A DNA stretch of 64,000 nucleotides, taken from Stegostoma tigrinum. Its lineage: Eukaryota. Of the stretch, positions 7,726 through 46,700 are shown piece by piece. The stretch is taken from the NCBI RefSeq assembly GCF_030684315.1, contig NC_081394.1, forward strand, positions 1,674,001 to 1,738,000. Reading direction: 5' to 3'. The notes under the pieces are model-generated. The model was not told where the DNA came from and ran no database searches. It saw nothing but the letters and a program-made list of their open reading frames with translations. Within the stretch, counting starts at the first letter, position 1. Each line of letters opens with the position of its first letter. A program made the position numbers and the translations under genes.

Positions 7726-8710
7726 TCAGCCTAGTGCGCTGTCGGGGTCAGGGAGATCATCACTGGATGCCCCTCTCTGAGCTGCTGTGACACAAAAGTT
7801 CTGTGTTTGGTTACCGCTGAGGTTGGCATCGGGCAGGTGCCAGATGACTTCTCCCGGAGGATTAGAGTAGAAATCTGCATCATTTCCCCCTGTCACTGGA
7901 GTGAAGGAGAGAACCTGGCTGCTTGTGTTTAACTGGGTGCTGATGTTTCCCTCGATTGTGAACCAGGTGTAATGAGATATCGGTGGGACACTCTCACTTG
8001 AACATGTTAATGTGACATTGTGTGCCTCTGACGCTCTACTGATGGACACTGTGGTCTCCCGTGTGATATCTGGAACAAGAGCAGAGGAGAATCGACAGGA
8101 ATCTGCATGCCCCAAAACCCTCTGAGATCTGTCCACTTCTCCAGTTCCAGCCTCTTGAGTATTTCCTGATGTCCATTGATCCACCTTCAACTATTTGGAT
8201 CCCTATGCTCTGGAATTCATTTCCCCATTTTTCACCTCCTTTAGTCAATCATGATCCTGATCCACATGAGGAGATCTGCTGTCACTGTCCAAAAGCATCG
8301 TCCAAGAGGTTGAGCGTAAAAGTGACTTAAAAGAGCAAACTGTGAAAAAATATTTGCATCTGTGGTTACACACGTCCATATGCCTGTCACTGACAACATA
8401 AATCTAACAGTCTGTCAGGGATATTAATTTGTTTGGAGAGATTTGGCTGTGGAATATCTAGTGTGCAGACATTACCAAGCACGGAAACAGAACAAAGGAG
8501 GATAAGGCGAGTATGATGGACCCAAACAAAAGACCAGAGAGACAGTTGGACTGAGTGTGAATCAGGCAGTGGTTAACGTACTGACTGCAAATGGCAATAG
8601 GGATATCAAGATTGGTGCACCCAGGGAGGGAGAGTGGACAAATTTGAATATTTGGGTCAATGTTAAACATCCAGAACTGAAATGTCACTTAGAAAAATAA
8701 CAGCAAGAAC

Positions 8711-9989: not shown

Positions 9990-12284
9990 TACCATGATGC
10001 CAAGAGGTCCGAGTAGTCTGGCAGTCATTTCGGAAATGTCTTTGATGTAGGGGAGAGTGGTTATGGTTTCTGAGCCTGTTTTGTCTGTTTGTTTGGGTTT
10101 ATTGCTGAGGAATCGGCGGACTGTGTTCATAGGGTACCCATTCTTTTTGAATATGCTGTATAGGTGATTTTCCTCTGCTCTGCGTAGTTCCTCTGTGCTG
10201 CAGTGTGTGGTGGCTCGTTGGAATAATGTTCTAATGCAGCTTCGTTTGTGGGTGTTGGGATGGTTGCTCCTGTAGTTCAGTATTTGGTCCGTGTGTGTTG
10301 TTTTCCTGTAGACGCTGGTTTGAAGTTCCCCATTGGCTGTTCGCTCCACTGTGACATCTAGGAATGGCAGTTTGATGTTGTTTTGCTCCTCTTTTGTGAA
10401 TGTTATGCCAGTAAGGGTATTATTGATGGCCTTGAAGGTTTCCTCTAATTTGTTTTGTTTAGTGATGACAAAGGTGTCATCCATGTAGTGGACCCAAAGT
10501 TTGGGTTGGATGATTGGCAGAGCTGTTTGTTCGAGTCTCTGCATTACTGCCTCTGCTAAGAACCCTGATATCGGAGATCCCATGGGTGTACCGTTGGTTT
10601 GTCTGTAGGTTTTGTTATTGAAAGTGAAGTGGGTGGTGAGGCATAGGTCCACTAGCTTGATGATGTTGTCCTTGCTGATGAGGTTGGTGGTGTCTGGTGA
10701 ATGTGTCTTCGGTTTTTCTAATAGTGTGGTCAGTGTTTCTTTGGCCAGGTTGATGTTAATGGACGTGTACAGGGCTGTTACGTCAAAGGAGACCATTATT
10801 TCATCCTCTTCTATCTTGGTGTCTTTGGTGTTCAGGAATTCTTGAGTGGAGCAAATGGAGTGGCATGAGTCTTCTACTAGGTGTTTTAGTCTTTTGTGTA
10901 GTTCCTTGGCTAATCTGTAGGTTGCTGTTCCAGGTAGCGACACTGTGGGCCTGAGGGGGGCTCCTGGTTTGTGAATTCTTGGTCGTCCATAGAAGCGTGG
11001 TGTGTTGGATCCATCTGGTTTCATTTTTTGGAAGTCTCTCTTGTTTAATTCTCCAGATTTTTGAAGTTTTTGAGTAAGGCTGCGATTCGGTTCTCTAGTT
11101 GTGGGGTCGGGGCTATCGTCACCTGTTGGTAGGCGTCGGTACCTGCAAGCAGTGCGTTCGCTTTCTCAATGTAGTCTGTTTGGTTTAAAATGACTGTCAA
11201 GCACCATCAAGTGCACAGTGATGGCTGTGAAACTCTTTTCTGCTGCATGTTCATTCTGTGCTGGTAGTCTCCAGTCTCCCTGAATGTAATGTGAGGAATC
11301 CCCAACGACAGCTCATTGTTGGAATTCATTCTGTTCATTGTGGCATTAAGAAATCTCCACATCAGGTTAGAAGCTGGGGAGCTCTCTACAGAGCAGATTA
11401 CCACTGTAGAATCTCTCTTAGTTATACTATTTGATAAATCTTCAATTATAGAAGGAAAGTAATTGAGATTCCATGGTGCAACTAAAAACAAACGCCGATA
11501 TCATTGTGACGAAACAGTGCACAACAAGACTCCACGCTGATTCTTCCGTGTTTGAAGGTTTAGAATTTCCAATCACCTTCACTCTATGTAAGTTTCTATG
11601 TCAAGTGTTTGATGGACATTGCCCATGTAATCTTTTATTATATTCGCTCACCACTGGAGCAGCTGTCCATCTAGAACAATAGAAAGTTACTTCTTTGTCC
11701 TCAGGAAGTCCACAGGTGCTGTCAGCCATTGGACAGTATTTATTCAATGGAGTACAGAGTGATGAGTGTACATAGAGTGATATAGTATGATTTCCAGAGC
11801 TGACCAGATCAAAATCTGCCCCCGACATTTATTGAGGGCAGTTGTCAACATTTGTGACGTCAAACACTAAGACAGTAAAGCCAGCAGATTCAACAGTTTT
11901 AAATAAACAGAAAAAAGATTTATACTACAAAGGTGATCCAATAGTGCAGTCTCCATTGTATGTACCAGATATATTCTAACATCCAGAGTTAAACTGAGGT
12001 CAAGCTGTGATTAAAGACCCTCCAGAGGATAGCAAATGAAAATGGAGTGAAGAAAGATCCCACAGATTTCTCTGCAATACCCAAACATAATGACACTGTG
12101 AGTCACCATATCTCAGAGTTGCAAACAGAATTTTGATTAATCTCTTTGTAAGCTGTTAAGAGTTTTTTTTTGAGACCTCAATAGATTCCAGGCTGATCTG
12201 CAAACTTACTAATGATGCTTTTTATATTCTCATCTAAATCATTTATGTAATGGCAAGCTAAAGTTTTGCAAAAGACGCCAAGAT

Positions 12285-18467: not shown

Positions 18468-18887
18468 GTAAGTAACATAACAACAGAAGTTCACTTCCAG
18501 GACCAACATTATCCTGTGTTGACATTGTAACTTTGGAAAGACAGGCTCCAATGATTTGAAGACTTCAAAACATTTCTATATAATGCTAACTTCTGAGTCT
18601 CAGTTCATACGGACCATCTTTCTTGATCAAAGGACAAGGGACGCTCAGAGACATGGGCATTGTGATGTGGTAAAGGTACTGTACAAATGCAAATCTTTCA
18701 TTGTTTTACTTCCTTAAAGCTTTGTAACGCCACAAAGCACCTGTCATCCCATGGGGAATCAAAGCAGTCTGTGAAGATATTGTCTAAAAGTAGCGCTGAT
18801 CTCTCTGACAAGAGGTGATGTCTCATTAACCCCTTTCTCTTACAGAGCTTGAGAAGGAGAAGCTGATAAAATATCTGGGAGTAGACA

Positions 18888-18927
18888 ATGTTCGGGAAAT
18901 ATCACTTGCTGTTGTCATTTCTACAAG
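18888..18927 (+). CDS. Gene A leader exon (exon 18846-18927): MFGKYHLLLSFLQ
   Basis: Acceptor ccctttctcttacag at 18845; donor CAAG|GTAATG, phase 1; joins V1 to give signal peptide MFGKYHLLLSFLQAGLA|QEW. Confidence 0.85.
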
Positions 18928-21900: not shown

Positions 21901-24900
21901 TCTTTGCCTCAGAGATGAGGAGATGATGCCTTGCAAGGATGCCCTCTTGGCTGTGGAGACAGAGAGTGTGCTGCGATTGGTTGTAGAAGACTAGGCATTG
22001 TTAAGGCTAAACTCAGAGTGCGATGATGCGCAATTAGACTGCAATGGGCAATGCTTCTTAACTGGTTGCTGCGACATTTTCTAAAATTCATTCACAGGAT
22101 GTGGGCATCACTGACTTGGCCAACACTTATTGCTGTGAGGGCAGTTTTGAGTCAACCACAGTGCTGTGTGTCTGGAGTCACACCACATAAATTTAGCAGT
22201 GTCCTTCCCCAAAGGCCATTAATAAACAGGTTCGGTTTTCCCTGACAATTGACAGTGCTTTCATGAGCACCATTAGATTTTTCATTCCAAATTTCTCTTG
22301 AATTCACATTCCATCAGCTGGCCATAGTGGGATTTGAACCTATTCCCCAGAGTCTCAACATTACAAGTGTAGCGGTAGTACCACTTAGCCATCAACTCCC
22401 CAGGCACACAGTTGGTTTCACCACAGGGTCGGTCCCGATCCTCGCTAGCAAGGGCAAAGAAGCTTGCTCCGTAGGGGTGAAGAGCTGAATATTAGGCATC
22501 CTACATCTACCCTGACTTGCTTGCCCCACTATAGGCGTCAACACCTCACTGACTCAAGTAATGAGTTGAGGACCAGGCTGGCAGGGTCAGGTGGCACAGC
22601 CTTCTCTGCCGGTCCCAGGGACATAGGCAGCCGTTGTCCTCAAAGCGGTCGCCAATTTCCCCTTGTCTACCTCACCTAGGGCAAAGGTGATGAAACATGT
22701 TCTAGACAACCACAGCTCAACTGGGTGAATGGTGGCCTTTTAAACTTGGTGGAAGACCGACTTCGCTAAACAGGGTCCTGAGGACCATGAGTGAATGTAG
22801 GATGAACTTGTCCACTCCTGCGTCCAGGATTGCCCTCCATCTGCTGTGTAACTTCGGAGAGCTCCTTGTGTGCCCTGTAGGTGGTCCATACAACACCCAC
22901 TGTGTACTAGTGACGGATGGAATGGATATTGAGTCTAGTGAATCCATAGGCCATCCAGAACTAAATACTGATATTTCTCTCCCCAGCTGGACTGGCGCAA
23001 GAGTGGAAAATCCACACTCCACGTGAGGTGACAACTCAGGAAGGTTCCTGTGCTCAGATTCCGTGTAATTATAGTTGTCCTTCACATCTGACAAACCAGC
23101 CGCGAGTCGGAGTCTGGTATTATCAAACAGGAATTAAAAGATGGTCAGTAGCCTCTCACTCCGAGAGTCTTAGTAATGAATCGCCACAGTTCCGCTATCG
23201 GACCTGGCTGTCTGGAGACCTGCAAGATGGAGACTGCTCACTGATTATAAACAACATCACACGGGAAGATGCAGGATATTATTATTTCAAATTAACATTT
23301 GTCGACAAAGTGAAATATAAATCCAAACCTGCAACTCAGCTTCAAGTTTCTGGTAAGCGCTGTGTAAATAATTACTCAAATTCACATCCTACATTCAATG
23401 GAAAATAATGCAAACTGAGACATTTCCAAATTAACACAAAACACAACCTGTTACAACTCAGTGATAATGGGAACTGCAGATGCCGGAGATTCCAAGATAA
23501 TAAAATGTGAGGCTGGATGAACACAGCAGGCCCAGCAGCATCTCAGGAGCACAAAAGCTGACGTTTCGGGCCTAGACCCTTCATCAGAGAGGGGGATGGG
23601 GGGAGGGAACTGGAATAAATAGGGAGAGAGGGGGAGGCGGACCGAAGATGGAGAGTAAAGAAGATAGGTGGAGAGAGTGTAGGTAGGGAGGTAGGGAGGG
23701 GATAGGTCAGTCCAGGGAAGACGGACAGGTCAAGGAGGTGGGATGAGGTTAGTAGGTAGCGGGGGGTGCGGCTTGGGGTGGGAGGAAGGGATGGGTGAGA
23801 GGAAGAACCGGTTAGGGAGGCAGAGACAGGTTGGACTGGTTTTGGGATGCAGTGGGTGGGGGCGAAGAGCTGGGCTGGTTGTGTGGTGCAGTGGGGGGAG
23901 GGGACGAACTGGGCTGGTTGAGGGATGCAGTAGGGGAAGGGGAGATTTTGAAACTGGTGAAGTCCACATTGATACCATATGGCTGCAGGGTTCCCAGGCG
24001 GAATATGAGTTGCTGTTCCTGCAACCTTCGGGTGGCATCATTGTGGCAGTGCAGGAGGCTCATGATGGACATGTCATCAAGAGAATGGGAGGGGGAGTGG
24101 AAATGGTTTGCGACTGGGAGGTGCAGCATGGCCTCCTGCACTGCCACAATGATACCACCCGAAGGTTGCAGGAACAGCAACTCATATTCCGCCTGGGAAA
24201 CCTGCAGCCATATGGTATCAATGTGGACTTCACCAGTTTCAAAATCTCCCCTTCCCCTACTGCATCCCTCAACCAGCCCAGTTCGTCCCCTCCCCCCACT
24301 GCACCACACAACCAGCCCAGCTCTTCCCCCCCACCCACTGCATCCCAAAACCAGTCCAACCTGTCTCTGCCTCCCTAACCGGTTCTTCCTCTCACCCATC
24401 CCTTCCTCCCACCCCAAGCCGCACCCCCCGCTACCTACTAACCTCATCCCACCTCCTTGACCTGTCCGTCTTCCCTGGACTGACCTATCCCCTCCCTACC
24501 TCCCCACCTACACTCTCTCCACCTATCTTCTTTACTCTCCATCTTCGGTCCGCCTCCCCCTCTCTCCCTATTTATTCCAGTTCCCTCCCCCCATCCCCCT
24601 CTCTGATGAAGGGTCTAGGCCCGAAACGTCAGCTTTTGTGCTCCTGAGATGCTGCTTGGCCTGCTGTGTTCATCCAGCCTCACATTTTATTATCCTGTTA
24701 CAACTCAGTGTCTGACTCTCAATAACCTGGCGATAGCTTCCAAAACCGTCCTAAGTGACATCCAATACTCCTGTTGATATCAATAACTTGATGTATTGAC
24801 TACGATGTCAGGTTATCTACTCCTATCCATCTCTTTAATTCTGATTAAAAGTCAGAAAAAGAATTTGTATTTTCATAGTGCCTTTTGCTACCTCACGACA

Positions 24901-27900: not shown

Positions 27901-30900
27901 TGTAAACAGGAGGGGGTTATGAAAATATGCTCTAAGTTCATGGCTAACTTGCTCAGTTAGTATGATCAGGTACTTGGAGAACATCCACTCCAATCCAACT
28001 CTTGGACAATCCAATCCAACAGGCAACCCAATTCACATGGACACCTGCACATATCAACTGCAGGATTAAGATTTTGGAAGCATTAAATAAGCTTGCTTGT
28101 GTGACTAATCTTGGTAGATTTGAGTTGTTAATGTGCAGAGTAAGCTCACAGGCCAAGGGCAGTCTAAAACAAAAAGCCGCTGGTTGATTGTCTGCAATGC
28201 AGCATTATCCAAACTTCCATCTTCCAGTTTACACTTGTAAACAGAGGTACACAACTCTTATAGTGTGCTTCAACGGTGTGCCTTCATGCCATGGGCACTA
28301 TTTTTAGTGATGGCACCCACCCGTCTCCTGCATTGGGAGCAAATAGTTTGTTTAAATAATCCCTTTATTCACTTGCATCACTACTTTTAGTGATGAATAT
28401 AGTTGTCTAATCGCCTTATTGATAACCAACATCCCTCCTTTTCGGAATAAGTGTATTTGTCATGCAGATTCTGTTACTCTTCAACCCCACTTAGACTCTT
28501 GTTTTTAGCACATTTTGCAAGCTCCATATTTTTCCACCTCAATGTTGTACATTAGATTGATTATTGAGAAAGTTCAATTCTAAATCTATTCTGTAGGATT
28601 ATTGATATCATTCTGTAACTTATTGGAGTCCTCTTCAGTACTGACCATTCACCCAATCAAGACTTATCTGTAAATTTGGAGTCTAGTGGATCTACGAGCT
28701 ATCTGTTTCTAAGCACTAATGCTTTTTTTTAAACTAATGCTTCTTTGCCCAGCTGAACCATCACCAGAGTGGAAAGGCGACTCTCTTGGAGAGGTGACAG
28801 TGCAGGAAGGTACCTGTGCACAGATTCCATGTCGTTACAATTATCCATCGTGTCTGGAAAATCGACCACGAGAAGGCGTTTGGCTGAAATTTGAAAGCCA
28901 GACGGTCTTGTCTAGCGTAGCCTTTCACTCCAAGGGTCACAATCATGAATCACAAAGGTTCCGCTATTGGACCCAGCTGTCAGGAAGCCTGAAAGATGGC
29001 GACTGCTCCCTGATTATAAACAACATCAGACGGGAAGATGCCGGCCATTATTTTTTTAAAATAGAATTTGACGACGGACCTAGTCATAACCTGGCTTCAT
29101 GTTTCTGGTGAGTGTTGTGTTGGAATTACTCAGCAATTCTCTCAACAGTCAATGGGAAGTGACACAAAATATGGCGTTTACATATTAACACAACGTACAG
29201 CTTCTGATAACACAGTGTCTGATTCGATTGGTACCAAGTGGTCAGGCTCTGGACTTTGTTCTGATCCTGGCAGACTGCACCACATGACAAATCAGATCCC
29301 ACAATAAAACCTGGCTTGGTGGACATAAGTTTAAATCTTTGAAGTTGGTTAACGTGTTGGTTAGCCGCTAAAGCACAGTCACACGAGGCTTCAGTTTTGC
29401 TTCAAATAGAAAAACAAAATTTATCAAAGGCTATATTCCAGTTACAAATCAATGTGACAACCTGTTTCCCAACATACTCTGTTACAGTGACTCAAACTCC
29501 TATCTCAACTCTTTAAATTACTGCCTCCATCCAGTTTCCTTTATTCAAATTATGAAGATAAGTTTACAAATCCTTTGAGTTCAGTGGCATGAACCTTTCA
29601 CAATTCTAATGGCTTAAACACTTTTTAGTTTCACACAACCTAAAGATTTCCATCTCACATCTCCTGGCTTGAAAGCTTCATAAACTCACTATGGTGACAG
29701 GTTACCATTAAACTGAACTGAAAATTAAATAAAAATCGCTGATAAAGCTAAAAATAACTTCTGCTAAGAATAAGTCTGTTCCCTTTTGAACAGAACACTT
29801 GTTACCTTCTAAACTGAAGTCATAACAAAACTAATGGCTTTGCTGAGTTTACACAGCATGTCATGATCTCAAATTGACAAATATCTTATTCCATTAACAT
29901 TGCAGGGATCAGCCAGACATTTAGCTGGGGGATTTAGGCGTGACAATGCTATGATTTTAAGAGGTTATTTTGACCTGTAATTTTTTTAAGGAGAGGTTTT
30001 AAGAGGTAGCGAGCTGTCCAGTTGGAATACCAGTAAAGTGAACAGATGAGCAACCTTAAGTTTTTTTTTAATGTGGAACAACAGAAGCAGCCTGAACGGG
30101 TGCATCCAGCTCTCTCAGACAAGTTTTCTAGATCTTTTTAGTTTTAAGGTTTAGCTGTGAGCAGTTCTTGTTGGAGTTTCAATAGGGTAGGTGTTGCTGG
30201 AGTTTTGAATAAGTAGAAACTATCTTCTCCCTCTCTCGGTTACAGCTAGAAGCTAGGGTTTCTCTCTGCTGCTGAGTTATGTGTGAGAGAAATGTATTTT
30301 TCTGAATTTGCCTTTTTGCCATGGGTTGTGTTTATGGGATGGTACTATATTTGAACAGTTAATTAGTAGTAGTTAGTGTCTATTATTCTGTTAAGTTTTC
30401 CAATAGAGGTGTTATTCTGAGTTCTTCTTTCTTTCATTGCATTTTAACCATAGTGTTTAAATAAATTATGTTTTGTTTAATGTCAAGTTGTTTGACCAAA
30501 CAAATTGCATCTGGATCACAATACGTTACATTTACCTTTAAAATGAGAAAAAGAGTTAGGATCTAGGCTACCTTCTTGATCTGGTCTTATGGTCCATTAT
30601 TAGGTTACTGCTGTAGAATGACTTTCTGATGTTTTTAACATTAGCTGTCATGGAACTAACCCAAGTCTATTTCCTGCTTTTTTGACATCTAGATCCATCT
30701 TAATCATTATATAATTTTTATCACAGTTAATAGTCCAGTGACATTACCACAGCAGTGCCACCTCCTAATGAACTGAGCTTCTGAATTTCTGAAGAAGAGC
30801 CTGTCAGCCCCTGCTCCTCTGACGCTGCTTGGCCTGTTGTGTTCATCCAGCTCTACACTTTGTTATGTGATCTCCCAATCTATTTACTTTGTCCATCAAT

Positions 30901-33900
30901 GTTAGCGCCTTCCATTTATCTCTGTATTTATACGTTGAACATGGAGATAAGTATCACTACAATGTGTCATCGGAAATCTCTATTCAGAGGGTGATCAGCT
31001 GAATATATAATAATAACTTGAACTATTTGAAAGCAGAGGTGACTAGCGGTGGCAGTACTACAGAATGTTACATTTGCAAAAGGCACAAGCTGCTCAACCG
31101 AGTCAGTAAGTCTGCAACACTTTCAGAGAGAGATCACTTGACATGGTTTTTTGGGGTAAAGTAGGCTTTGAATACAGAAGATCCCACAGGGAAATAGCCT
31201 TTGCGTTGCTTCCTTTTCTGAAAGTTCTTTCCTCACAGTTTGTGATGTGAAAGAACACTGGAAAGCCTCATCAGCACAAGTGGATGGCTCTTAAATGAGA
31301 AATCGGAAATGGAAGGGATCACATTTTTACATTATGAATTAGAAAGTGAAATGGAAGTTAGACTCTGCCTTACAGCTGAGATGTCAGGAATAGACAAACC
31401 AAGTGGCACTCATTTTCAGCTGTGCAAGTTGCTTTTTGGACCAGTGTCAGCAATATTTTGAGTAAAGGAAAGACTTCCTGAAGATAGACCTGGAATGGGC
31501 TGAGCTGCCGTTTGCTGCAAATCTATAAGTGCAGGGTAGCTAGTGACATCCAGACCCTGCGAATTATAAACAGAACTCTCTCACCTCTTCTCTCCTTCTG
31601 ACTGAAAAGACAAGAAAACAAGAAAGCTTAAAAGAAACACTCTAACAAGTAAAAGTCTAAACTCTAACAAGTTGAATCAACTACTGAACTAAAAAATGAC
31701 CATCATTTTACAGACAATAGCATGTCATCATTCTCAATCAAAAAGGACTGAGAGAGACAATTTAAGCCAGATTTGTGTTCTGGTCTTTCAATTTTCAGAA
31801 TGTTCTTCCCTGTCAATGATTTTGTTTTCCACCCAAAATATCTGTTCAAACCATCTGTCTTTTGTTTGCCTTAATCGTGAAAAGGTGTGTGACTGTTGGG
31901 GTTTTGTAGGTACATAGCTTTGTAGGTACAAGTTAAAAAGTAGTGGGCTTATTGTTATTTTCTTTCCTTCTCTCTTGTTTATGGTAGAGTATGTCACAAA
32001 TAAATGGAGCTATTTTCTGTTAATGACAAAACCTGGTGTGAGTTGTCTCTGTCCTTAACAACAGTCAGTCAGGCAAATTGGTACCATAAGTGGGAATTTA
32101 TATGTTTTGCGATGGCTTGTAGAACGGTGGAACATGAATATTGGTGCACACTTCCCAGTTAAGTTATGACAGAAATTATTGTTTCTAGATAAAGAGTCAT
32201 CAACCAGCCATAACTGATCTACAAATATGCCTCAGCGCAAACAGGTTGTGTGGAAAGCAGCATGGGCTGCAGATCGACGCTTGGGGCAATCTATGACTTA
32301 AGTACATTTTTAAATGTAGCTGTTACTAGACCAAGCTATTTCTCAAATAAAACTTTGCAGAGAGCCATTGTGTATACTTGTGTGCACGTGTATGCGTTTT
32401 CGTTTTAATTGAGGAGTGGAATTGGAAATATTTACACTTTTTAAGCCTTTTGTTAATATCATTTTGATCTTTGGCTGAGTAAGATTCTTTGCAATAACTT
32501 GGTTATTTTATGGAACCTGGAGGATTTGTTTTTGATCCTAACCTTTATGCAGATTGATTATATATATAATATGTTCTTGTGAATTAAGGCAAAATCATGT
32601 GGTCAGAAGAGGAGTGCAACAAGGAAATAATCAGTTCATCCCTTCCAACTGAATTATAACGCAAAAGAAAGGCTTGCATTTCAATAGTGCCTTTTACCAG
32701 CTCAGGATGCCCCACATTGACTCTCAGGCAATTAAGTAATAATTTAACTGTAGTGGCACTGCAATACAGGAAACATCAGAGCAAATCTGAGAAAAGCAAG
32801 CTGCCATACACAGGAATGAAATAAATCAGCCAGTCTATCAGACCATGAGAAGCCAGTGAATACGATGGTGTGATGAGCTCCTGCGTCTTCATTCAGGATT
32901 AGCAATCACAGTGTCTTGGAATGAAAGTGTATTAAGCTGAGGGAAAGATACACTGTCTAAAAAGATGAAATTATTTTGAGATGTTTGTAACCTCATGGTG
33001 ATGTAATCATTATAAACCTGCTTTCTTTTGTGGTACTGTGACTTCTATTTGAGCTGATGCTTCAGGTTATATTTATCTAAAAGGATCCTCTCCCTGTCTT
33101 TAGATTTCACAGACAAACCAATGATACTCCCAGTGGAAATTATCGCAGGAAAGCATGTGAGCCTCAGGTGCACCTTCAACACAACGTGCAATGGAATACC
33201 ACCTGTCTTAACTTGGGACATTCCCACTGCTATACATGGAACAGTTTCAGAAGCTATTACACAACATGGTGTCACTCTGACCTACACTTCCATCCTGAGC
33301 CTGATACCATGGCGAAGACACCACGGACAGACTCTTACCTGCAGAGTAGGTTATCCGCATGCTTCATCAGAGCAGACCCTTGTAATAAATGTGCAATGTA
33401 AGTACCAATGCAGCGTTTCCTCAGCACTGACATTCCGACAGTGTGGCGCTCCCTCAGCACTGACCTTCCGACAGTGCAGCACTCCCTCAGCACTGACCCT
33501 CCGAGAGTGCGCCACTCTCTCAGCACTGATCCTCTGATATTGCGGCACTCGCTGAACACTGATGTCCGACAGTGCGGCGCTCCCTCTGCACTGATCCTCC
33601 GACAAAGCAGCGCTCTCTCTGCACTGACCCTCCGACAGTGCGGCGCTCCCTCTGCACTGACCCTCTGGTGCTATCTGCCTTCTGTACTGATTCCCTGAGC
33701 ATTTTGCACTCCCTTAGAATTGATGAATTTTGAGACCACCCCTATGAATTTGCTGCAGCCTCTCATTTTTGACTGTCAAATATGGATAACATATTTGGTG
33801 CCAAATTAACCCAGATTGATATTATATCTTTCACAGTCTTTGGGTCTAGCACAGACTCTTGCTTTGCTATGTGATTGCTCACAATATTCTCTTCTTTTGT

Positions 33901-36900
33901 TTTCAGACACACCAGAGAATCTTGCAATTACTTCCCTTGATGGGTCAAAAGTTTCTTCAATCAATATAATTGAGGGAGAGTCTGCAGTGATAATCTGTTC
34001 TGTCGAGAGCTTCCCAGCTTCTAATCTGATGTGGAGACATCTTAATGTCACAATCAGCAGAACAACTTCTAACAATGAGCTGCGGTTGGTGATTTCTTAC
34101 ATTACATCCAAGGACACTGGAGACTATCAGTGTGTGGCAGAGAATGAGCATGGAGCAGTGATGGGCTCCATAACCATTACTGTGCAACGTGCGTACATGC
34201 CAACTTCTATTTCTCTGACATGGTTCGAGGGACAAGCAAAAACACACAAACACATCAATGAAATTCACAGAAAGAAAAACAATTGAAAGATCATATATAA
34301 TCATGCATGCATAAACTGACTCTCTGTGATTAATCTTGTCCAATATTTACGTTACTTTTATTATTTTGAAGCAGAGAGATTATGGATATGAATCAGTCCT
34401 CATAAGGGCTTCTTTGTCACCAGAATATAATTTCGGAATAGTTGTGTCTCAGTATCAATTCCCAGAAATCATGTGACTGCAAGTGGTGGCCTGGGACAAC
34501 CCCTGTTGTGTTAATGGATGAAATAGTTGTTCTGTTGAGTTTATAACAGGCAAGATAAATGTATTATGGCTCTGTGTTTACTTCTGACTTAAGAACAGAA
34601 ATTCAAAGTGCGAGTTGATACACACCAGAGTTGAATTCAGAAGGTCGAACAGATTCACCTGGCAGCGGATTCAGTGCAATTCAGTGGGAACTATCAGCGC
34701 AGCGTAAGAGATTTGTAGTCTGTGAAGCTTCTTATCCAGGAGAGTTTGAGTGGAAATCATCAACTGTTTAAAATTGAACAGGTTCAGGCCTTTGTAACTT
34801 TGAGAGGCTTACCACCAACAACATTGGAAAGAATCATAAAATAAATGTCACACTTCAGGGTAAACATTGTCAGTAAACTAATGATTAAAGAGCAGAAAAG
34901 GGAATGATACGTCTCTAGAATTGAGTTTATAGCGATGGTGTGGTGAAAGAGGCTGAAACTTCGTTTTGATGATTATGTTAAGAGCTTTCTCACTATTTTC
35001 TATATAAATGTAGCTTTCTTTGAGAGTAGAGAGCTTGCATATTTGTGGAAAGTCACATTTTGTCAAAGCTTTTCACCTTACACTCATCAGGACAGTTTAC
35101 GAGAATACAAATTCAAGGAGGAAACCAACCTTTATTGTGCATGAGAGGAGAGTTCCAATTAGTTGACGAATGGGCTCTTATTGGTAGTGGTGTTGTGATG
35201 GAAAACTCATCCACTCATAGAGTCGCACAGCATGGAAACAGACCCTTCGGTCCAACTAGTATATGCCAACCATAATCCCAAGCTAAACTAGTTCCACCTA
35301 GCTGAATCTTCCCAAGCTGGAAAGGGTTCAGAAGAGATTTACTCACGAAAGGAGGGTTTGAATTAGGTGGATCTAAAAGAGACATGAGGACAATTTTTTT
35401 ACATAGTTGTTTGTATGTGGAAATAATTTCCAAAGGAAGCGGTAGATGGGGTTACAGTTACAACATTTGAAAGACATTTGGATAAGTACACGAATAAGAA
35501 ATGTTTGGAGGGATAATTATGTGTATCTAATTATAATATTTATCTGCTATAATTGACAGTTTCATCCATTATACCGTTTGTCACTCACTTTATCTATTAC
35601 CCTTTGTAAGTTGCATCTGTCTTCCTTATAACTTACTTTCCTACTTATCTTTGTGTCAAAGGCAAATTTAGTTGATATACCTTGGATTCCTTCATCCAAA
35701 TCGTTTACAGAAATTGTAAAGAGTTGAGCCATAGTACCTGTCCCTGTGGCACACCACTCATGATAATCTGCCAACCTGAAAAAGACCCATTCATTCCCAC
35801 AAAAGAACAAATTGCTGGCAAATCTCAGTAGGCCTGGCAGCATCTGTGGAGAGAAAGCAGAGTTAACATTTCAAGCCTAGGAACCCTTCTTCAGAATTCC
35901 TTTATCAGGGTGATATTGCAGTAAGATGTTGACTGTCCAGGATAGCTGTTATCCTGCAGGATGGCATAGATGCAATCTTTTTTAGCCTCAAACTTCCACA
36001 ATGAGCAAAAGCATTGGACCCTATTTACAAGAATAGGATCTGATCCATTACAAGAATTTTCATGAAAGAGGGATGACTCGTGGTGAGTTTAACCCGAGGG
36101 TCAGCACACCTCGGGGAAGTGGAGATGCTCAGAAGATTGGACTCCTATAAAATTGAACCTGTGCTGTTGGTTCGATGTGCAGCACAAACCAGGCACCCAG
36201 TCAACTGAGTTAACCAACCCACAGCATCATCTGCGGTTCCGATGAAAGTCTCGCCTCCTCAAACATCCCCCCTCGCCTGAGGCCTGGTGATTCTCATCTT
36301 AAACTCACCACCAACTGTTTTGCTCTAATGAGACATCAATCCTATGGTCCTTTGGGACAATGATGACTGACACACGCACACACACACAGTCTCACACTCA
36401 CACGGACACACACACACTCTCACACTCACACGGACACACACACATTCTCACACACGCACACTCTCACTCACAAACACACACACATACACTCTCTCACACA
36501 CTACTAGAAATGTGACATCGCACTTCAGATTGAGATGAACGTGACAAGAGGTCCATTCACATAGCAGATTCAGAGAGAGATGAAATGAAGGGTAATAGGC
36601 CTGAAACATCAAACTTCCTGCTCCTATGATGCTGTTTGGCCTGCTGCGTTCATCCAGCTCTACACCTTGTTATCAAGAATGGAGTCTTGTTGTGCTGCAT
36701 GACTGCTCACAATATTCTCTTCCTTTGTTCTTAGATGCACCAGAGAACCTTGCAATTACTTCCCTTGATGGGTTTAAAGCTTCATCAATCAATGTAACGG
36801 AGGGAGAGTCTGCAGTAATAATCTGCTCTGTTGAGAGCTTCCCAGCTTCTAACCTAACATGGAGACATTTTAATGTCACAATCAACAAAATAAGTTCCAA

Positions 36901-39900
36901 CAATGAACTGTGGTTGGAGATTCCTCGCATTACGTACAGGGAGACTGGAGACTATCAGTGTGTGGCAGAGAATAAACATGGAGCAGTGGAGAGGTCCATA
37001 ACCATCACTGTAGAATGTGAGGCTACTGTTACATTTGTTCCTTGTTGCAATGTCTTTAGGGGGGCTGTTATCATTGTCTTGTTTCTTCTCTCGATTTCTT
37101 CAAGCCTCCCTCATTCCATGGCTCCAATGCTACCCACCATCCAATTCTTCTTCATCCTTTTCTGCTTTCACCCCCAATTTCTCCAACAATTGTTGCTGAG
37201 ACAAAGGTGGTTTTTCATCTCCATGTCCGCACTTATCTGTCTGTCTCACTTTAACTGGACGTAATGCTCCTTTTTGACTCCTGACCTTCAAATCTTTCTC
37301 TAAGGCACTTGCTTGGCTTGTTCTCTATTGAGGTGAATCTTGGCATCCTCGGCCATACCCACATTTCAAAAACTGTCACCCTCCTCTCATCCACTTTCTT
37401 TAGAATCTGACTCTCAATCCATTAAGTGTGACCCTCCACATTAGTGACCGTACCTGACATTTCCTCAGCTGCAGGCTGATGTTTTCAGATGCTCAGAGTG
37501 AAGCCAGTGGTCGCAGTGCTTGCTGTTATTTTTCTAGTCCTCATGTAACTTTTGATGTTGACTGTTGTGTCAAATATTGAAATTTGACCACTGTCCCAAC
37601 CTTGATATCTCCATTGCCATTTAGAGTCATTATGTTGGCTGTTGCCTCATTCGTATTCAGTTCAAATGTCTCCCTGTGTCTTTTGCCTGGGTCCACCATA
37701 CTCTCCAGTTCCTCATTTATTCCATTTCTGTCTGAGGTATTGTCTGCACACCAGATATTCCACAGCCACATCTTTACAACATTTACAGTGCTTGTGACAG
37801 GGATATGAATATGTGTAAAGACAGATACGGATACTTCAATACAATTTCCTTTCGCAAGTCACTCCTTATATTAACCCTCAGTGGCCAAAAATATCCTTGT
37901 CTGAAGGAGATGACAAACAAGACAACAAGATGTAGGAGTAGAAGTAGTAGTTCAGCCCATCAAGTCTGCTTCTCTGTTTTTCGAGATCGTGGCTGACCTG
38001 AAAATGCTCCAATCCACTTTCCTGCCTTTTCCTCCATAACCCCCGATTCCCTTACCAATTAAAATGCTGTCTATCTTAGCCTTGAATACATGTAATAACC
38101 TGGCCTCAACAGCCTCCAGTGGTAAAGAATTACACAGATTCACTACCCAAAAGAAAAAAAAATCTTGCTCTTATCTGTCCTAACTGGGTAACTCTGTACT
38201 CTAAAATTATGTCCCTCTAGTCCGAGACACTCCCAGAAAGGGAAACAAACTTTCCACATCTATCTTGCCAAGCCCCTCAAGTTTCCTACATGTTTCATTG
38301 AAGGTTGCCTCTCATTCTTTGAAACTCCAGTGTGTACATGCCGAAGCCACCCAACCTCTCCTCATAAGACAATCCGTCCATACCTGGGATCAGTTGAATG
38401 AATCTTCTCTGGACTATCTTCACTGTAACTTTACTGAAATAAGGGGACCAAAACCAAGATAAGGCTCCCGAAACTATTCATTATGTTCTAGATGTGATCT
38501 GACTTTTTTTAATAGTTTCAGCAAACACCCCCACATTTTACTACTCCATTCCTTTTGAAATAAAGAGCAATATTCCATTTTCCTTCCCTATTACATGCAG
38601 AGTTTGGATACTAGTTTGTTTGGAGATGTATACCTGAGTACCTCCAAATCCCGCTGTGTTGTAGCTTTTTGCTTTTTATATGATATTCAGCTCTTCTATT
38701 CTTTCTGCCAAAGTGCACACTCTCACATCTTCTCACATTATGTTCCACCTGCCACATTTTTGCAAACAAGCTTACCCTGTCTGTAAACGTCTGCAGATTC
38801 TTTGTGCTATCTTCACCACTTGCCTTCCCATCTATTCTTACATTGTTCCCAAATTTGGTTACAGTACATTCACCATCATCATGTATTCCATTAACATTTA
38901 TTGTGAATAATTGTGCCCCCAACATTGATCCTTGTGATATTCCACTTGTTATAGACTGCCATGCTCAAAATGCCCCTCTTCATCCTAACTCTCTGTTTTC
39001 TAATAGTTAGCCAGTCCTCTATCCATGCAAATTTATCATCTCCAATACTATGGGCTGTTATCTGCATGAGTGCTATCTCATCATGCACCTTCTGAAAATC
39101 CAAGTGTATTACACCCACTGCTTTTCTTACATCTATTGTACTTGTTACTCCCTCAATGAATTCTGAGATATTTGGTAGACATGATTTCCTCTTCCTTAGG
39201 ACATGGTCATTCTGCTTGATCATTTTTTGTTTGTATTTCTCAATATTCTACCATTACAGCATTTCAAATGGACTTGAACATGTTCCTAATAATGATGTTC
39301 TCTAGGTAGGTCACAGTTATCTAGTATTGGTCTCTTTCCATTTTACAATAAAGGCATTACGTTGGCGGTATTCCTATCCTCTGTAACTTTTCCAGAAAAT
39401 GAGCAAGGGATTTCAGAGCTTAGGGCTGCAGGTAGTTGAAGGTGGATCAATGGATATCAGGAAATACGCAGGAAACCAGAACTGGAGTGTAGAGATCTCA
39501 AAGGATTATGGGGCATGTGGATTCCCTGCTGATGCTCCTCTGCTCTTGTTCCAGATCCCCCACGGGAGACCACAGTGTCCACCAGTGGAGCCTCAGGTGG
39601 GATCAGAGAGGGACACAATGTCACATTAACTTGCTCCAGTGAGAGTGTCCCACCGATATCTCATTACACTTGGTTCAGGGTCAAGGGAAACACCAGCACC
39701 CGGTTAAACTCAAGCAGCCAGATTCTCTCCTTCACTCCAGTGACTCGGGGAAATGATGCAGGTTTCTACTGCACAGTGACAAACCCACTGGGTAACAGCA
39801 GCTCCAGCATGACCCACCTGAATGTAGAATGTAAGTTTTTTTCTGTCTGCCTGCCTCTTAACACTCGGGGTATCTGTGTGGGAACCACTTACTGACTGTA

Positions 39901-42900
39901 CTTTAGATGAGAGTAACCTCACTGCAAGAACCTTGCCCTCACTGAGATACAGAGAGCGATACCAGGATTGGCGACGAACAGCTCAAAGAGGGATGGTTTT
40001 AAGTGGTATCTTCAATGACAACATAGAGACAGAGAGAATAGTGGAGAGGTTTAGAAGGGAAATAATTAGCCTAAGGGTCACGGCAGCTGAAGACCTGGCT
40101 GACGGATGGAAATCAGAGGATGCTTGAGAAGCCGCAATTAAAGGAGGCAAAGGGACCTCAGAGGGTTGAGGGGAACTGGAGGATGTTACAGAGATAGGGC
40201 GGGGATGTAGGGGCTGGAGGAGATGACAGATCGGGAGGCGTTTGGGGTCTGGAGGAGATTACAGAGATAGGGAGGGTATGTAGGGGTTGGAGGAGTTAGA
40301 CATAGGGAGGGGTTTAGGGGCTGAAGGGGGTTACACAAATAGAAGGGGTGTAAAGGCTGGAGGTGGTTACAGAGATAGGGAGGGGGTGTAGGGGCTGGAG
40401 GTGTTACAGAGATAGGGAAGGGTGTAGAGGCGGGAAGTGTTACAGAGATGGGGAGGGGTGTGTTCAGATGAGGGAAGGGGCTAATGGTTGAACAGGACTG
40501 GAATAGCTAGATGACTGACTGGCCAGGAGGGCATTGTGATGATGCTCAGTAATAGCAGGAACTGTGACCATTGGCAAGTGTTTTAATGTTACGGTTCTAT
40601 CGTACGGCCCAACTCTGCTACTCTTGACTAATTGCTGCTCTTCCCACCTCAGATAAGCCAGAAATTTCCCAGGCGTCGAAATGTGCTCAGCGGGCAGAGG
40701 GGATCACCTGTGTCTGTGCAGTCAATTCCAACCCTCCTGGAGACCTCACCTGGCACCTGCCTCATACCAACCTCAGCGGTAACCAAACACAGGGAGGTTT
40801 TGTGTCGCTGCAGCTCAGAGAGGGACATCTGGTAACAGGCTCCCTGTTCCTGACAGGACCCCAGGATGATGAGGAAGTGACGGTATCCTGCTCAGTTCGA
40901 AACCTACATGGGACAGCCACGTTCAAGGTCTATCAGGTCAAAGGTGGGCTCAATCTGGGGAGGCGATGGCCCAGTGGTATTATAGCTACTGTTAATCCAG
41001 AGACCCAGATAACATTCTGGGGCCTGGGTTCAAATCCCACATGGCAGATGGTGGAATTTGAATTCAATAAATGTCTGGAATTAATAATCTAATGATGACC
41101 ATGAATCGTCAGGGAAAAACCCATCTGGTCCACTGATGTCCTTTAAGGAAGGAAACTGCCATCCTTACCTGGTCTGGCCTACATGTGACTCCAGACCCAC
41201 AACAATGTGGTTGACTCTCAACTGCCCTCTGCGCAATTAGGGATGGGCAATAAATGCTGGCCAGGCCAGTGATGCCCTCATCCTGTAAATGAATGAAGAA
41301 AACAAAAATCTCTGTTTGACACCCTCAACTCTAGAATCCTCTACTTCTTTTAGATGTTCTTTCCTACTGGCTCTTTCACCAACGCATCCTCATGATAAAG
41401 ATAGCACTGGATACAATTTGAGTCAAGCCATTGAGGGGAAAATGTCAAGCACTTTCTTCACACAAATAGGGGTTGGAAATCTGGAACTCTAACCATCATA
41501 TCCCCCGTCCCCAAAAAAGTCTTTCATTGCGAATAAATATGGATGAGTCAAATGTAACTACTGCCAATAATTTAGAAGTGTAATCGGTGATTTTATTGAA
41601 GTTTTGATGATATTGAGGTGACCAGAAGTAGGTGAATTAAGAGAAACTGTTCCCGTTGACATGATATCCAGGACTTAGGCAGTCTAAACATTGGAATAGG
41701 CCCTTAAGCAGTGAAATGTGGAAGCACTTCTGCACACACACTCTGGTCAAAGTTTGGAACTTCCTTCCAAAATTGGCGATTGGTCCATTGTTAATTACCT
41801 CAGCCACTGAAGATTAGTGAAGGTAATGATTTATCTAGACTCAAAACACTAGTTTACTGTCTCTCTGTGGATGCTGCCTGATCTGCTATGATTTCCAGTA
41901 TTTTTTGTTTTCAGTAATGATTCCTCTTGATTGTTAATCTGTGAGTTTGTAAACTAAATTTCTCAAATGCGAAGGGAGGAATGTTGATCAAAATCTGACA
42001 CATAAGCTTATTGTTTCCTTAGGTTTATAAATTGACGCATAACATATAAAAGTAAGGAAGTGATACTACACTTCTACAAATCATTGGAGTATTGTGATCA
42101 TTTATGCGCACTTTAAGAAATAATGTTCAAGCCCTGGAGAGAGTTCAAAGGAGATTTACCAAAATGATACCCGGAATGAGCAATTTTTGATACAAGGAAA
42201 GATTAGAGAAATTGAGCTCATTCTCGTTGGAACAGAAAGAATTTAAGAGGTGACCTTACCAGGGTGTTCAAAATTACAAACAACTTTGACAGGGTAAAGG
42301 AGGATAAACTTTCTGCCAGATGATATGGCAGTAATTATGAGTCACAATTTTACGATTATCAGCAAGAGAGTTACAGGTGAGAAGAGGAGGAATTTCTTGA
42401 TTCAGAGAGCTGTTAGGATTTGGTATGTTCAGCTGGAGAGAGTGGTGGAGGCAGATTTCATAGGACCTTTCAAAAGAGAGTTGTAAGACAACAAGGAGAA
42501 GGGGAGCAGTCAACACAGGACTGAAAGAGTTGTACATTAATGCAGATGATGTATGAAACAAACCAAATGAACCTGTTGGTGCAGATTTAAATTGGCAGGT
42601 ACAATCATGTAGGTATGAAGTTAATCAGGTTTGGGAACTAAGGAGACAAGTCTTATCGAAAGGACAAGGCAGAAGGACAGAGAAGGTGGGTTGCCTAGTT
42701 TGTAAGGAATGAAATTACATCGATAGCAATAAATGATATGGGGTTGGAAAACGTGGAATTTGCGTTAAATTGAACTTAAAGTTGAGAAACTGCCAATGAA
42801 ATGAGTCCCCGATGGGAGTTATGTAGAGGCCAGAATTCCTTTCAAAAATCAGGATGTAGGGAAGAAAATAAATCAGGAGATAGATAAGGCGTGAAGAAAG

Positions 42901-43726: not shown

Positions 43727-46700
43727 GGGGGGGGTGGTTGGGGCAGGGGGGTGCGGGTGGTAGGGAAGAGGTGAGTGTAGTGGCCATCATTAAGGAGGAG
43801 GTGCTGGGGAAGCTGAAAGGTCTGAAGGTGGATAAATAATCTGGACCAGATGGTCTGTACCCCAGTGTTCAGAAGGAGATAGTTGAGGAGATTGTGGAGG
43901 GATTGATGATGAGCTTTCAGTAATCATTGGAGTCGGGGAGGGTCCCAGGGGACTGGAAAGTGGCTCATGTAACCTCACCCACTTGTTTAAGAAACAAGGA
44001 AGACCGAAGGCCAGCCTGACCTTGGTCATTGGTAAGATTTTAGACTCTATTACTAAGGATGTAATGCAAAGTACTTGGTCGTACGTGGCAAAATAGGACT
44101 TAATCAGCACAGCTTCGTCAAGGGAAGGCCATGTCTGAGAAATCTGTTGGAATTCTTTGAACAAGGAATGAACAAATTAGAGTAAAGGAGAGCCAATGGA
44201 AGTGATTTATTTGGATTTCCAAAAGGCCTTTGACAGGAGGCTGCTGAATATGATAAGATAAGAGCCCATGGTGTTAGGGACATGGCACAGCATGGATAGC
44301 AGTACAGAGGTGTACTGCTGACGCTGTGTACTGCTGACGCTGTGACTGGCTAGCAGAGACAGAGGGTGCAGATAAATCGGTCTTTATCAGGACAGCAGCA
44401 GGTGACTAGTGGAGTACTACAGGGGTCAGTGTTGGGACCACAACTATTTATGCCATGTATTAGTGATTGGGATGAAGGAACTGAGTGCACTTTTGCTCCA
44501 TTTGTAGATGACACAAAGATAGGTGGCGGCACAGGCAGGGTTGAGGAAGTGGGGAGGCTGTGGAAGAATTTGGACAGGCCAGGAGAGTGGACAAAGAAGT
44601 GGCAGATGGAATACAATTGGGGAAAGTGTGAGGTTGTGCACTTTGTTAGGAGAAACAGAGGTGTGGACTATTTTCCAAATGGGGAATCACTTTGGAAATC
44701 TGAAGCACAAATGTACTGAGGAGTCATTGATCAGGAGTCTCTAAGGTTAACGTGCAGATTCAGTTGGCAGTTAGGGAGGTAAATGCAATGTTAGGATTAA
44801 TTTTAAGAGCGTTAGAAGAGCAGAGGTGTACTGCTGACGCTGTATAGGATTTGGTCACACCATTTCGAATATAGAACATATTTGGAATATTATGAACAAT
44901 TTTGGCCATGTATCTAAGGACGAATGTGCTGCTGTTTGAGGGGGTTGATGTAGGGGATGACAAGTTTATCATATGAGGAATGGATACTGGATCTGTACTC
45001 AATGGAGTTTAGAGGGATCTGATTGAAACTTACAGAATGCTGAGAGGCCTGGATAGAGTGGAAGTCAAGAAGATATTTCCACCAGTGGGACAGACTGCGA
45101 CCGGACAGCACAGCCTCAAGAGTGAAGGGATGACCCTTCAGAATGGATAATGAGGAGGAATTTCTTCGTCCAGATGGTAGTTAATCTGTGGAACTCATTG
45201 CCACAGAGGGCTCTGGAGATCAAGTCATTGAGTGTATTTGAGACAGAGATAGATAGGTTATTGATTAGTAAGGGGATCAGGTGTTATGAAAAGAAGGCTG
45301 GGCAATAACGTTGAGAAACATATCAGCCATGATCGAATGGTGGCACAGGGCCATCAGGCTAAATAGCCGAATCTTGCTCCTATGTCTTATGATCTGATGA
45401 TCTACCAGTCAGTCCCGGATGTTTCAATAAGGTTGTTTCTCATTCTTTGAAACTCCAGTGAGTAAAGGCCCAACTTATGCAGCTTCTCCTCATAAGACAA
45501 TCCCTCCATATCACGTATCAGCCAAGTGAACCTTCGCTGGACTGCCTACAGTTCCGGTCTGCCTTTCCTCAGATAAGAGGACCGAAGCAGCACATTGTAT
45601 TCCACCTAGGATCTGCCAAGTGCCTTCTATAGTTTTAGTAAAACCTCCCAACTCATACACTCCATTCTCTTTAAAATGAAGGCCAACATTCCATTTACCT
45701 TCACCTGTTACCTGGTGAACTTGGATGCGAACTGAAATAAGGCTGTCAGTTTGTGGACAGCAAGATCCCAAAGCAACAACGTGATAATGAGCTGACAACC
45801 AATTGCTTTAGTGAGCTTGTTTGTTGCACGGACAAAGATGGCAAGGTGGGTCACTAATGTCCCATTCGTGAAGGGAATCGGCTGTTTTATTCCAGTCTAT
45901 ATGTACAGGCAACTCGTCTCAAACTCCAGTGAGGCTACCTCATAGTGCTCCTCTGAACTCGCCTGTCAGTTTGTGTGGTTCAGGAAAACACCACCACGCC
46001 ACCTTCTCAAGGGGCAATAAATGCCAACGTTTCTCGAGAATAACTGTTTAAATGTGGAGTGAATTGTTCCTCAATATACAGCAGGCCATTGTTCCAAAAT
46101 GATAGCACAGTATTATTGGTTACTTTTTCAGGCAGAGACTACAATAATTGGACATTGGGATTCATCATGACTGGAAGTGTGTTAAGTGTTTTCCTGGCTG
46201 GAATCTTATTCTTTCTCTGTGCGCGCAAGTAAGTGTGAATGCTTCATTTGATTTCACTCTGAATATTCAGTTCCACTTTCTTCTCTATAGCTGGTAACTG
46301 TTCCCTTGGGTTGAGGCAGCAGACACTTCTGTAAGTGGTCTCCATGTCCCTATGACCCAGGGAGGGCCTTTCATTGTGCATCCAGATGAATAACTACGAG
46401 TTGTTGTGATCTAGAACACGCTGCCTGATAGGGAGGTGGGAGCGGATTCAACAGGAACTTCCAAACGTGTAACTGTGTCTCTGCTGCACTGACTCTCTGA
46501 TGTACAGTAACCACACTGAAATATTGTGTTCTTGCAGGAGAAAGACAGCAACTGAGGTGACAGCTTCAAAGACCAATGATGTTGCAGTGACCTACAGTCA
46601 AATCACTGTGAAGTGCAAGGTGCAGAAATTTTTGACTCATTCCAAACCATCTACTTCAGCATGTCCCTGACAAACAGTTAACCACTGATTCTCATCTCTG

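Follow-up and report, generated by a model that had tools for sequence, protein, structure and literature searches.

A 14-nt deletion that shifts the frame of the second V exon in a Siglec-like receptor gene of the zebra shark

Introduction

What becomes of an immune-receptor exon that has intact splice sites and a shifted reading frame closing at the junction with the next exon? This question is raised by the second V-set exon (V2) of the SIGLEC11-like locus of Stegostoma tigrinum (zebra shark), which was identified by a protein match to a 64,000-nucleotide (nt) stretch of the forward strand of contig NC_081394.1 (positions 1,674,001 to 1,738,000; RefSeq assembly GCF_030684315.1). This whole stretch is called the window below, and all coordinates refer to it. 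The gene encodes a Siglec-like immune receptor, in which V2 is located between the first V exon (V1) and the first C2-type exon (d2). The initial annotation, made from the DNA letters, took V2 to suggest an ancestral receptor with two V domains and considered that it might now be a poison exon, a decoy isoform, or a null allele. The present analysis shows that the frameshift of V2 is real and lineage-specific, and that V2 is most likely an exon dying in the ordinary way within a family of immune receptors that evolves fast.

Results

A 14-nt deletion in V2

The V2 exon is bounded by an acceptor AG at 28751–28752 and a donor GT at 29108–29109 (GTGAGT from 29108), and differs from V1, when the two are aligned, by 3 inserted nt and by a gap of 14 nt that falls near 29087–29090. 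With its 355 nt and the 14-nt gap added, an intact V2 would be 369 nt long. When V2 is spliced to d2 at 33104, the translation ends with HNLASCF, followed by a TGA formed across the junction (TG/A), and when it is left unspliced, the translation ends with HNLASCFW, followed by the TGA of 29109–29111. Alignment, exon edges, and both translations thus reproduce what the initial annotation had described, namely intact splice sites, about 14 nt missing relative to V1, and TG/A and TGG TGA as the spliced and unspliced readings. Of the span given there for V2, 28753..29111, the start stands, and 29111 is the last base of the unspliced stop, the exon itself ending at 29107. V2 retains the cysteine found in internal V domains (YPSC). 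The predicted product of V2 inclusion comprises 253 amino acids, is without the G strand of V2, and contains nine cysteines, including a new one at position 252. Past the junction TGA, the shifted frame is open through the whole of d2 from 33134 on.

Contigs of sequencing reads were compared with the window over 28400–33399 for 4 of the 16 listed runs (X1, X9, X14, and X15), V1 lying outside this stretch. At the gap, where a read-level check had been called for, one contig of DNA run X1 (organism A, sample S1; 883 nt, depth 5.16) covers 28548–29430 with no gaps and a single difference (C to T at 28884), and four runs of sample S1 (X1–X4, with X1 the one compared) hold 0.91–0.94 of 64 sampled window words. 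Judged from a single DNA run, the gap is a real deletion and no assembly error. That the true exon has 369 nt and an intact frame, the deletion being an assembly or sequencing error, is largely refuted and can scarcely be credited: S1 may be the animal that was assembled, so that run and window may share their source, and another allele may be masked in a contig, but the contig crosses the site without a gap, the four S1 runs hold most of the sampled words, and the break falls at a 4-nt direct repeat with no homopolymer. The T at 28884 is the base found also in the relative of run X9 and in V1. Since the contig of DNA run X1 combines this base with the deletion, two haplotypes likely carry the deletion, as judged from one contig in which alleles may be collapsed. 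The 14 missing nt are bounded by the repeat TAAC, suggesting a microhomology-mediated deletion between its two copies.

The missing bases are found in run X9 (organism C), which a tool guessed to be RNA and whose contig of 769 nt does join exon to exon. This contig follows V2 to 29090, continues with 30 other letters, and proceeds with d2 from 33103. Of the 30 letters, 16 match window 29091–29106 with one mismatch, and the other 14 are the bases missing in the window. This contig has a further 29 letters 5' of V2; as the compared stretch began at 28400, a V1–V2 join was not seen directly.

An ancestral receptor with two V domains

Protein models from Rhincodon typus (whale shark; P0006) and Hemiscyllium ocellatum (epaulette shark; P0008) contain V1–V2–d2 in frame, with V2 beginning AEPSPEW and AGPSQEW and ending in complete G strands (NYYPVTWLRVS and HYYPVTQLRVS), respectively. 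At each of the 16 listed codons that differ, the letters of run X9 encode the amino acid found in P0006. In a tree of 58 V domains, whose bootstrap had not settled, V2 of the window is sister to whale shark V2 (100/97), followed by Hemiscyllium V2 (99/95). The in-frame models of the two sharks, together with the spliced contig of run X9, in which V2 with its 14 nt is joined to d2, confirm that the ancestral receptor was a V1–V2 Siglec-like protein. The proposal of an ancestral V–V receptor is hence borne out, and the orthologous exon, which the initial annotation had suggested inspecting, is intact in P0006, P0008, and the contig of run X9. The Chiloscyllium ortholog models P0022 and P0023 are without V2, and P0017 has only its 3' half, identical to Hemiscyllium V2 at 45 of 54 residues; this absence may reflect an independent loss or a modeling artifact. 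Further back, V2 comes from an old tandem duplication of an exon, given the 69% identity between its block and that of V1 with the intron flanks included.

The start motif of V2 (AEPSPEW), previously read as the mark of a linker-type V domain, was rejected as a marker of V position, because the internal V domains of P0009, P0013, and P0020 begin xGLSQEW; the extra cysteine described below is a better one.

Origin of the stop at the V2–d2 junction

A 14-nt deletion was simulated along the intact V1–d2 join. Of 350 starts, 33 put the stop at the junction, and these comprise every start from 319 to 351 of 367; another 316 put it earlier within the exon, and a single start gave no stop. The V–d2 junction of the family, TCT G/AT (Ser/Asp), holds TGA out of frame, and the residue after the V domain at this junction in the stored proteins is Asp in 52, Asn in 4, and His in 2. 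The junction TGA of V2 is a by-product of the family Ser/Asp junction, such deletions in the last ~48 nt all giving it. Because it follows from any 14-nt deletion in the G-strand region, the stop is no sign of design, and its coincidence with the junction, earlier taken as notable, is not beyond chance given the place of the deletion. The stop as a designed feature was rejected by this sliding-deletion simulation.

Probable decay and skipping of V2

Amino-acid changes between zebra shark and whale shark were polarized with Hemiscyllium as the outgroup. The ratio of zebra shark to whale shark changes is 11:1 in V2 (112 columns, 5 ambiguous) and 3:4 in V1 (122 columns, 7 ambiguous; Fisher p = 0.038 for V2 versus V1), and the terminal branches of zebra shark versus whale shark measure 0.25 versus 0 for V2 and 0.063 versus 0.12 for V1. 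Two changes of zebra shark V2 fall at nearly invariant positions: R73W, where 58 of 59 V domains have Arg and none has Trp, and P12L, where 55 of 59 have Pro. It is likely that the constraint on V2 was relaxed for part of the zebra shark branch, before or around the deletion, although neutrality is not proven.

V exons of this gene are phase 1-1 cassettes, and skipping of one therefore keeps the frame. V2 is contained in none of the three RefSeq isoforms of the locus, which are computer-made models with no visible read support; isoforms X1 (P0047) and X2 (P0014) join V1 to d2 in frame, in agreement with the earlier claim that skipping restores the full receptor. On the window, the 748-residue isoform X1 extends from the leader through V1, d2–d6, and a transmembrane (TM) exon to a pair of tail exons, the second of which closes at 47444. 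All exons apart from V2 are open, no disabling change was found in them, and Tyr motifs are present in the tail. No Stegostoma protein occurs among the 48 protein matches to V2 (197–2000 amino acids), and single-V members are the commonest form of the family (25 of 44 matches to V1). V2 is thus probably a pseudo-exon that is mostly skipped, the gene making a single-V receptor composed of V1, d2–d6, TM segment, and immunoreceptor tyrosine-based inhibitory motifs (ITIMs). In the proposed course of events, the 14-nt deletion between the TAAC repeats would have broken V2 of the ancestral V1–V2 receptor in the zebra shark. Skipping of V2 would then join V1 to d2 in frame and yield a single-V ITIM receptor, in which the A'-strand Cys of V1 would pair with the Cys of d2 as in ordinary Siglecs. 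A stop upstream of later exon junctions makes a transcript a target of nonsense-mediated mRNA decay (NMD); leaky inclusion of V2, with the stop at the V2–d2 junction and six junctions downstream, would be expected to lead to this fate.

Several observations weigh against a mostly skipped pseudo-exon. The V2 donor (CTG/GTGAGT) agrees with the consensus at 8 of 9 positions versus 7 of 9 for V1, the V2 acceptor, with 12 pyrimidines in 17 versus 13, is as good as that of V1, and the relative of run X9 splices V2 to d2. RefSeq isoform X3 (P0046, 607 amino acids) begins at the first in-frame Met of d2 (33121), a start that would fit an out-of-frame upstream exon such as V2 and that another first exon would also explain. 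Skipping is deduced from the computer-made RefSeq models, and no zebra shark RNA over the gene was seen: among the runs searched for V2, no RNA run is listed as holding it, and runs X14 and X15 (organism A, kind unrecorded) cover neither V2 nor d2 and hence are silent on splicing. The decay signal is modest, with Fisher p = 0.089 for V2 against all non-V2 parts (39:23, 735 columns) and p = 0.081 for the zebra shark branch rate of V2 (11/112) against the rest (39/735). Between V2 and run X9, the ratio of non-synonymous to synonymous rates (dN/dS) is 0.47, not 1 (9.5 synonymous and 16.5 non-synonymous, with 26 of 27 differences listed), and with V1 as the outgroup, the zebra-derived changes of V2 comprise 8 non-synonymous, 5 synonymous, and 8 unresolved ones.

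Other explanations of the frameshift

If V2 were instead mostly included, the deletion would remove most of the full-length receptor, and the gene would be a null or weak allele, possibly a SIGLEC12-like polymorphism. The strong splice sites of V2, its inclusion in the relative of run X9, the start of isoform X3 inside d2, and the dN/dS of 0.47, which fits a fairly recent loss, make this worth serious attention, but we consider it unlikely, as V2 by itself accounts for 11 lineage-specific changes and the remaining exons stay open, two haplotypes likely carry the deletion (judged from the one contig of DNA run X1), and isoforms X1 and X2 skip V2. It is also conceivable that inclusion of V2 has been co-opted to tune the receptor level by cell type or activation via NMD. 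Classic poison exons, spliced alternatively and coupled to NMD, are deeply conserved and regulated. Like them, V2 brings in a premature stop upstream of several junctions (six), and its splice sites are kept, isoform X3 giving a hint of inclusion; unlike theirs, its stop is lineage-specific and came about as a coding exon decayed. P0006, P0008, and run X9 are free of the frameshift, and a role as a regulated poison exon, as entertained by the initial annotation, consequently lacks the conservation expected across related species. In addition, the stop lies where it does because of the junction sequence common to the family, and splice sites kept over a short time need no selection. Such a role is therefore improbable, even though regulated skipping of a V exon is known from human CD33 exon 2 (available portions of PMC9954446 and PMC6712934).

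Two further possibilities concern the protein that V2 inclusion might yield. Cryptic acceptors at 33066 and 33084 or cryptic donors at 29083 and 29101 might rescue the frame, producing a V–V receptor with a replaced G strand. All four sites do give an open frame into d2, 33066 yielding ...HNLASCFWLYLSKRILSLSLDFTDKP, but they are weak (4/9 and 5/9 consensus positions for the donors; 10 and 9 pyrimidines for the acceptors versus 14 at 33104), none is used in the three RefSeq isoforms, and V2 has lost conserved residues, so that a rescue of this kind is very improbable. We regard as extremely improbable that a leader–V1–truncated V2 protein of 253 amino acids escapes NMD and acts as a soluble ligand trap. 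It is predicted to have a signal peptide and a complete V1 and to lack a membrane anchor; however, under the junction rule its transcript is subject to NMD, V1 has Lys in place of the sialic-acid-binding Arg, and no such protein occurs among the 48 V2 matches of 197–2000 amino acids. The secreted V1–V2 product put forward in the initial annotation is further disfavored by the lost G strand and the apparently free Cys gained at 252, which would likely cause misfolding.

Siglec membership

The V domains have Cys residues in the A', B, and E strands and none in the F strand, CAQIPC and GDCSL aligning with CVSIPC and RNCTL of MAG, and V1 and V2 both score above the cut-off for Pfam V-set and Ig_CD22. 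The CTFNTTC of d2 aligns with CMVPDNC of MAG, placing a Cys at the interdomain position, where its bond is putative. C2-type immunoglobulin (Ig) domains, one TM segment, and Tyr motifs (VTYSQI, LVYANI, and IEYAEI) are also present, the ITIM signature being that given in the available text of PMC7226832. The essential strand-F Arg is replaced by Lys in V1 (YYFK) and V2 (YFFK) of the zebra shark and in V1 and V2 of the whale shark, against YYFR of MAG, consistent with the loss of Arg pointed out before; among the 65 shark V domains considered, 58 have Arg, 6 have Lys, and 1 is unscored. Because the Lys is common to the whale shark, the substitution predates the frameshift. By these features the protein belongs to a Siglec gene family and is of the inhibitory-receptor type, and canonical binding of sialylated glycans is doubtful given Lys for Arg.

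The best relatives of solved structure for the whale shark ortholog are MAG (E = 1.8e-55), Siglec-8 (2.9e-34), and CD33 (3.3e-25). Sequence favors MAG overall and Siglec-8 and CD33 for V–d2, orthology to any mammalian Siglec not being established. The ectodomains of MAG, CD22, Siglec-8, and CD33 resemble the shark protein in the cysteine pattern of V and d2, and have one V domain, whereas shark models have one to seven, with an extra Cys in the internal ones. In a predicted structure of a shark paralog, V2–d2 superposes on d1–d2 of CD33 (Z-score, 14.8; root-mean-squared deviation, 3.3; 206 aligned) and on MAG (Z-score, 16.5; root-mean-squared deviation, 5.4; 211 aligned).

The multi-V family and its internal cysteine

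Adjacent V domains occur in 18 of 44 matches to V1 and in 11 of 19 further matches to V2, with multi-V models from Cetorhinus, Carcharodon, Scyliorhinus, Mustelus, Chiloscyllium, Hemiscyllium, Rhincodon, Pristiophorus, and Mobula. As many as seven V domains are present in a single Cetorhinus model, in which neighboring genes may have been merged. An extra Cys is located seven residues after the B-strand Cys in 21/26 internal versus 0/41 first V domains in the set of V1 matches, and in 16/18 versus 1/13 in the 19 later proteins, making 37/44 versus 1/54 in both sets (P0002–P0082), after V domains without a recognizable B strand had been dropped (5 in the first set and 8 in the second). These counts are not independent, because rows are related and isoforms overlap. 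The site in zebra shark V2 is located within 28752–28860. The sole exception among first V domains is in P0075, a model beginning at a linker-type V, and seven internal V domains are without the extra Cys. Cys-bearing V domains are spread over several clades of the V tree.

The interdomain Cys of d2 lies six residues after its B-strand Cys (CTFNTTC, aligned to MAG), and interdomain d1–d2 disulfides are given for MAG (C37–C165) and CD22 (C39–C167) in the available texts of PMC5150538 and PMC5624926, respectively. It is likely, by position in the alignments, that the internal-V Cys pairs with the A'-strand Cys of the preceding V domain, repeating the Siglec d1–d2 disulfide. Such a V–V disulfide would make V exons modular, and without V2, V1 would bond d2. 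An AlphaFold model of P0015, a V–V–d2 paralog, was built from a 12-row alignment (predicted local distance difference test score, 71.9, with <50 in the linker 139–142; predicted template modeling score, 0.52); its Siglec matches span V2–d2 only, and the comparison is neutral on V1–V2 geometry.

On balance, we lean slightly toward a shark and ray Siglec lineage with arrays of two to seven V domains, chained by cysteines, in which V exons serve as plug-in cassettes. That this array and its disulfide chaining are combined with zebra shark V2 having turned into a regulated or polymorphic NMD switch setting the level of the ITIM receptor is improbable.

Some isoforms and residues of the family may be recorded here. 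Models P0003 and P0005 of Scyliorhinus canicula are isoforms with a common C-terminus, another first V domain, and four versus three V domains. The 15 Cetorhinus maximus isoforms P0002 and P0048–P0061 have the same seven V domains, with eight in one of them, and show no V-exon skipping. In V1 of zebra shark and whale shark, the fourth residue past the B-strand Cys is an additional Cys (NYSC, window 23065–23080), where the Hemiscyllium and Chiloscyllium orthologs have Tyr.

Layout of the locus

The features of the gene are compiled in Table 1. The possibility of another leader exon in the V1–V2 interval was rejected, as a search for the leader pattern gave 18888 alone.

Table 1. Coordinates of the SIGLEC11-like gene features in the window
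Feature	Position	Strand	Description
Leader exon	18850..18927	+	ATG 18888 (MFGKYHLLLSFLQ); phase-1 donor GT 18928; N-terminus of P0014/P0047 matches
V1 block	22967..23463	+	blastn 69% over 507 nt, intron flanks included, to V2 block 28733–29217
V1 exon	22987..23352	+	366 nt, 0 mod 3, phase 1-1; V-set; 100% to P0014
V2 exon	28753..29107	+	355 nt, 1 mod 3, frameshifted; ortholog of whale and epaulette shark V2
Deletion scar	29087..29090	+	Lone TAAC left of the 4-nt direct repeat; 14 nt gone, YYPV-encoding in relative
TGA	29109..29111	+	Read when the V2 donor stays unused
Two upstream AGs	33064..33083	+	Acceptors 33066 and 33084; candidate frame restorers for V2 into d2
d2 exon (C2-set_2)	33104..33397	+	CTFNTTC with Siglec interdomain Cys
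Ig exon d3	33907..34188	+	AG/GT in flanks
Ig exon d4	36735..37016	+	Paralog of d3, 84% over 300 nt
Ig exon d5	39555..39830	+	Ig exon
Ig exon d6	40653..40943	+	Ig exon
Transmembrane exon	46132..46228	+	TM segment
Cytoplasmic exon 1	46538..46619	+	VTYSQI, ITIM-type
Last coding exon	47208..47444	+	LVYANI, IEYAEI; stop 47442–47444

The acceptor region of V2 (28714–28750) contains a short duplication (ACTAATGCTT twice), not present in V1, that yields two branch-point-like CTAAT motifs. The V1–V2 intron holds an inverted repeat of 567 nt at 23493–24697, 99% complementary with 71 nt between the arms, which is a retroelement end inserted 140 nt 3' of the V1 donor; it could influence splicing or represent an assembly fold-back. 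On the minus strand, 7749–8075 and 11261–11446 hold what is left of an inverted paralog of this gene, oriented head to head with the intact copy: one piece of a C2 exon, and a d5 exon that runs straight into mid-d6 with no intron. A second, more distant Siglec-like gene starts on the plus strand (57994–58413 and 60940–61233). Its V domain matches Pfam V-set and Ig_CD22, keeps the Arg (YFFRFE), and is ~30% identical to V1, and its low-complexity introns (58535–59290 and 61464–61671) contain four runs of N.

Discussion

Two human Siglecs offer themselves for comparison with the zebra shark gene. SIGLEC12, the only Siglec described with two V-sets in the available text of PMC7876704, resembles it in the two N-terminal V-sets (ancestral in the shark), the replaced essential Arg, and a frameshift that removes the full-length product if read (PMC7876704 and PMC6288428, as far as available). 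The substitution in SIGLEC12 is R122C, whereas that of the shark gene is Lys. Unlike in SIGLEC12, the frameshift of the zebra shark gene falls in its second V exon, which is of phase 1-1 and can be skipped, and skipping can restore the full-length receptor (P0047). Moreover, the SIGLEC12 frameshift is polymorphic, whereas the zebra shark is known from one DNA run of one sample, in which the deletion is present. Because tandem V domains are common in the shark family, the parallel is loose, and the convergence raised in the initial annotation appears superficial, the Lys being older than the frameshift and no polymorphism having been shown. CD33 exon 2 is, as proposed for V2, a Siglec V exon behaving as an in-frame cassette (available portions of PMC9954446, PMC6712934, and PMC7992807). 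CD33 loses its only V domain with both forms in frame, whereas the zebra shark gene would drop the second V domain and keep V1, inclusion being out-of-frame. For splicing, CD33 exon-2 skipping is a closer parallel than SIGLEC12.

Fish genomes are reported to be without CD33-related Siglecs, and those of bony fish without inhibitory ones, in the available text of PMC7226832, which leaves sharks unmentioned; the shark multi-V family is likewise not described in the available texts of PMC8455134, PMC13262535, and PMC13358205. Literature searches, whose scope did not extend to subscription journals, turned up neither a description of multi-V Siglecs in sharks nor a paper pairing Stegostoma with Siglec; reviews or supplements may mention such receptors. 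The multi-V family with its position-specific cysteine might be the part of this analysis that is new to specialists.

In V2 of the zebra shark, what is most likely the death of an exon has been caught with intact orthologs available, and its family setting may matter more than the frameshift itself. Zebra shark and whale shark would then form a natural one-V versus two-V pair for the function of the second V domain. Among shark and ray models, Siglec-like proteins that combine ITIMs with stacked V domains and a cysteine linked to the internal position are numerous, against the published uniqueness of Siglec-12 in having two. If the V–V disulfide is true, it would explain how the number of V domains can change by exon gain, loss, and skipping without leaving unpaired cysteines.

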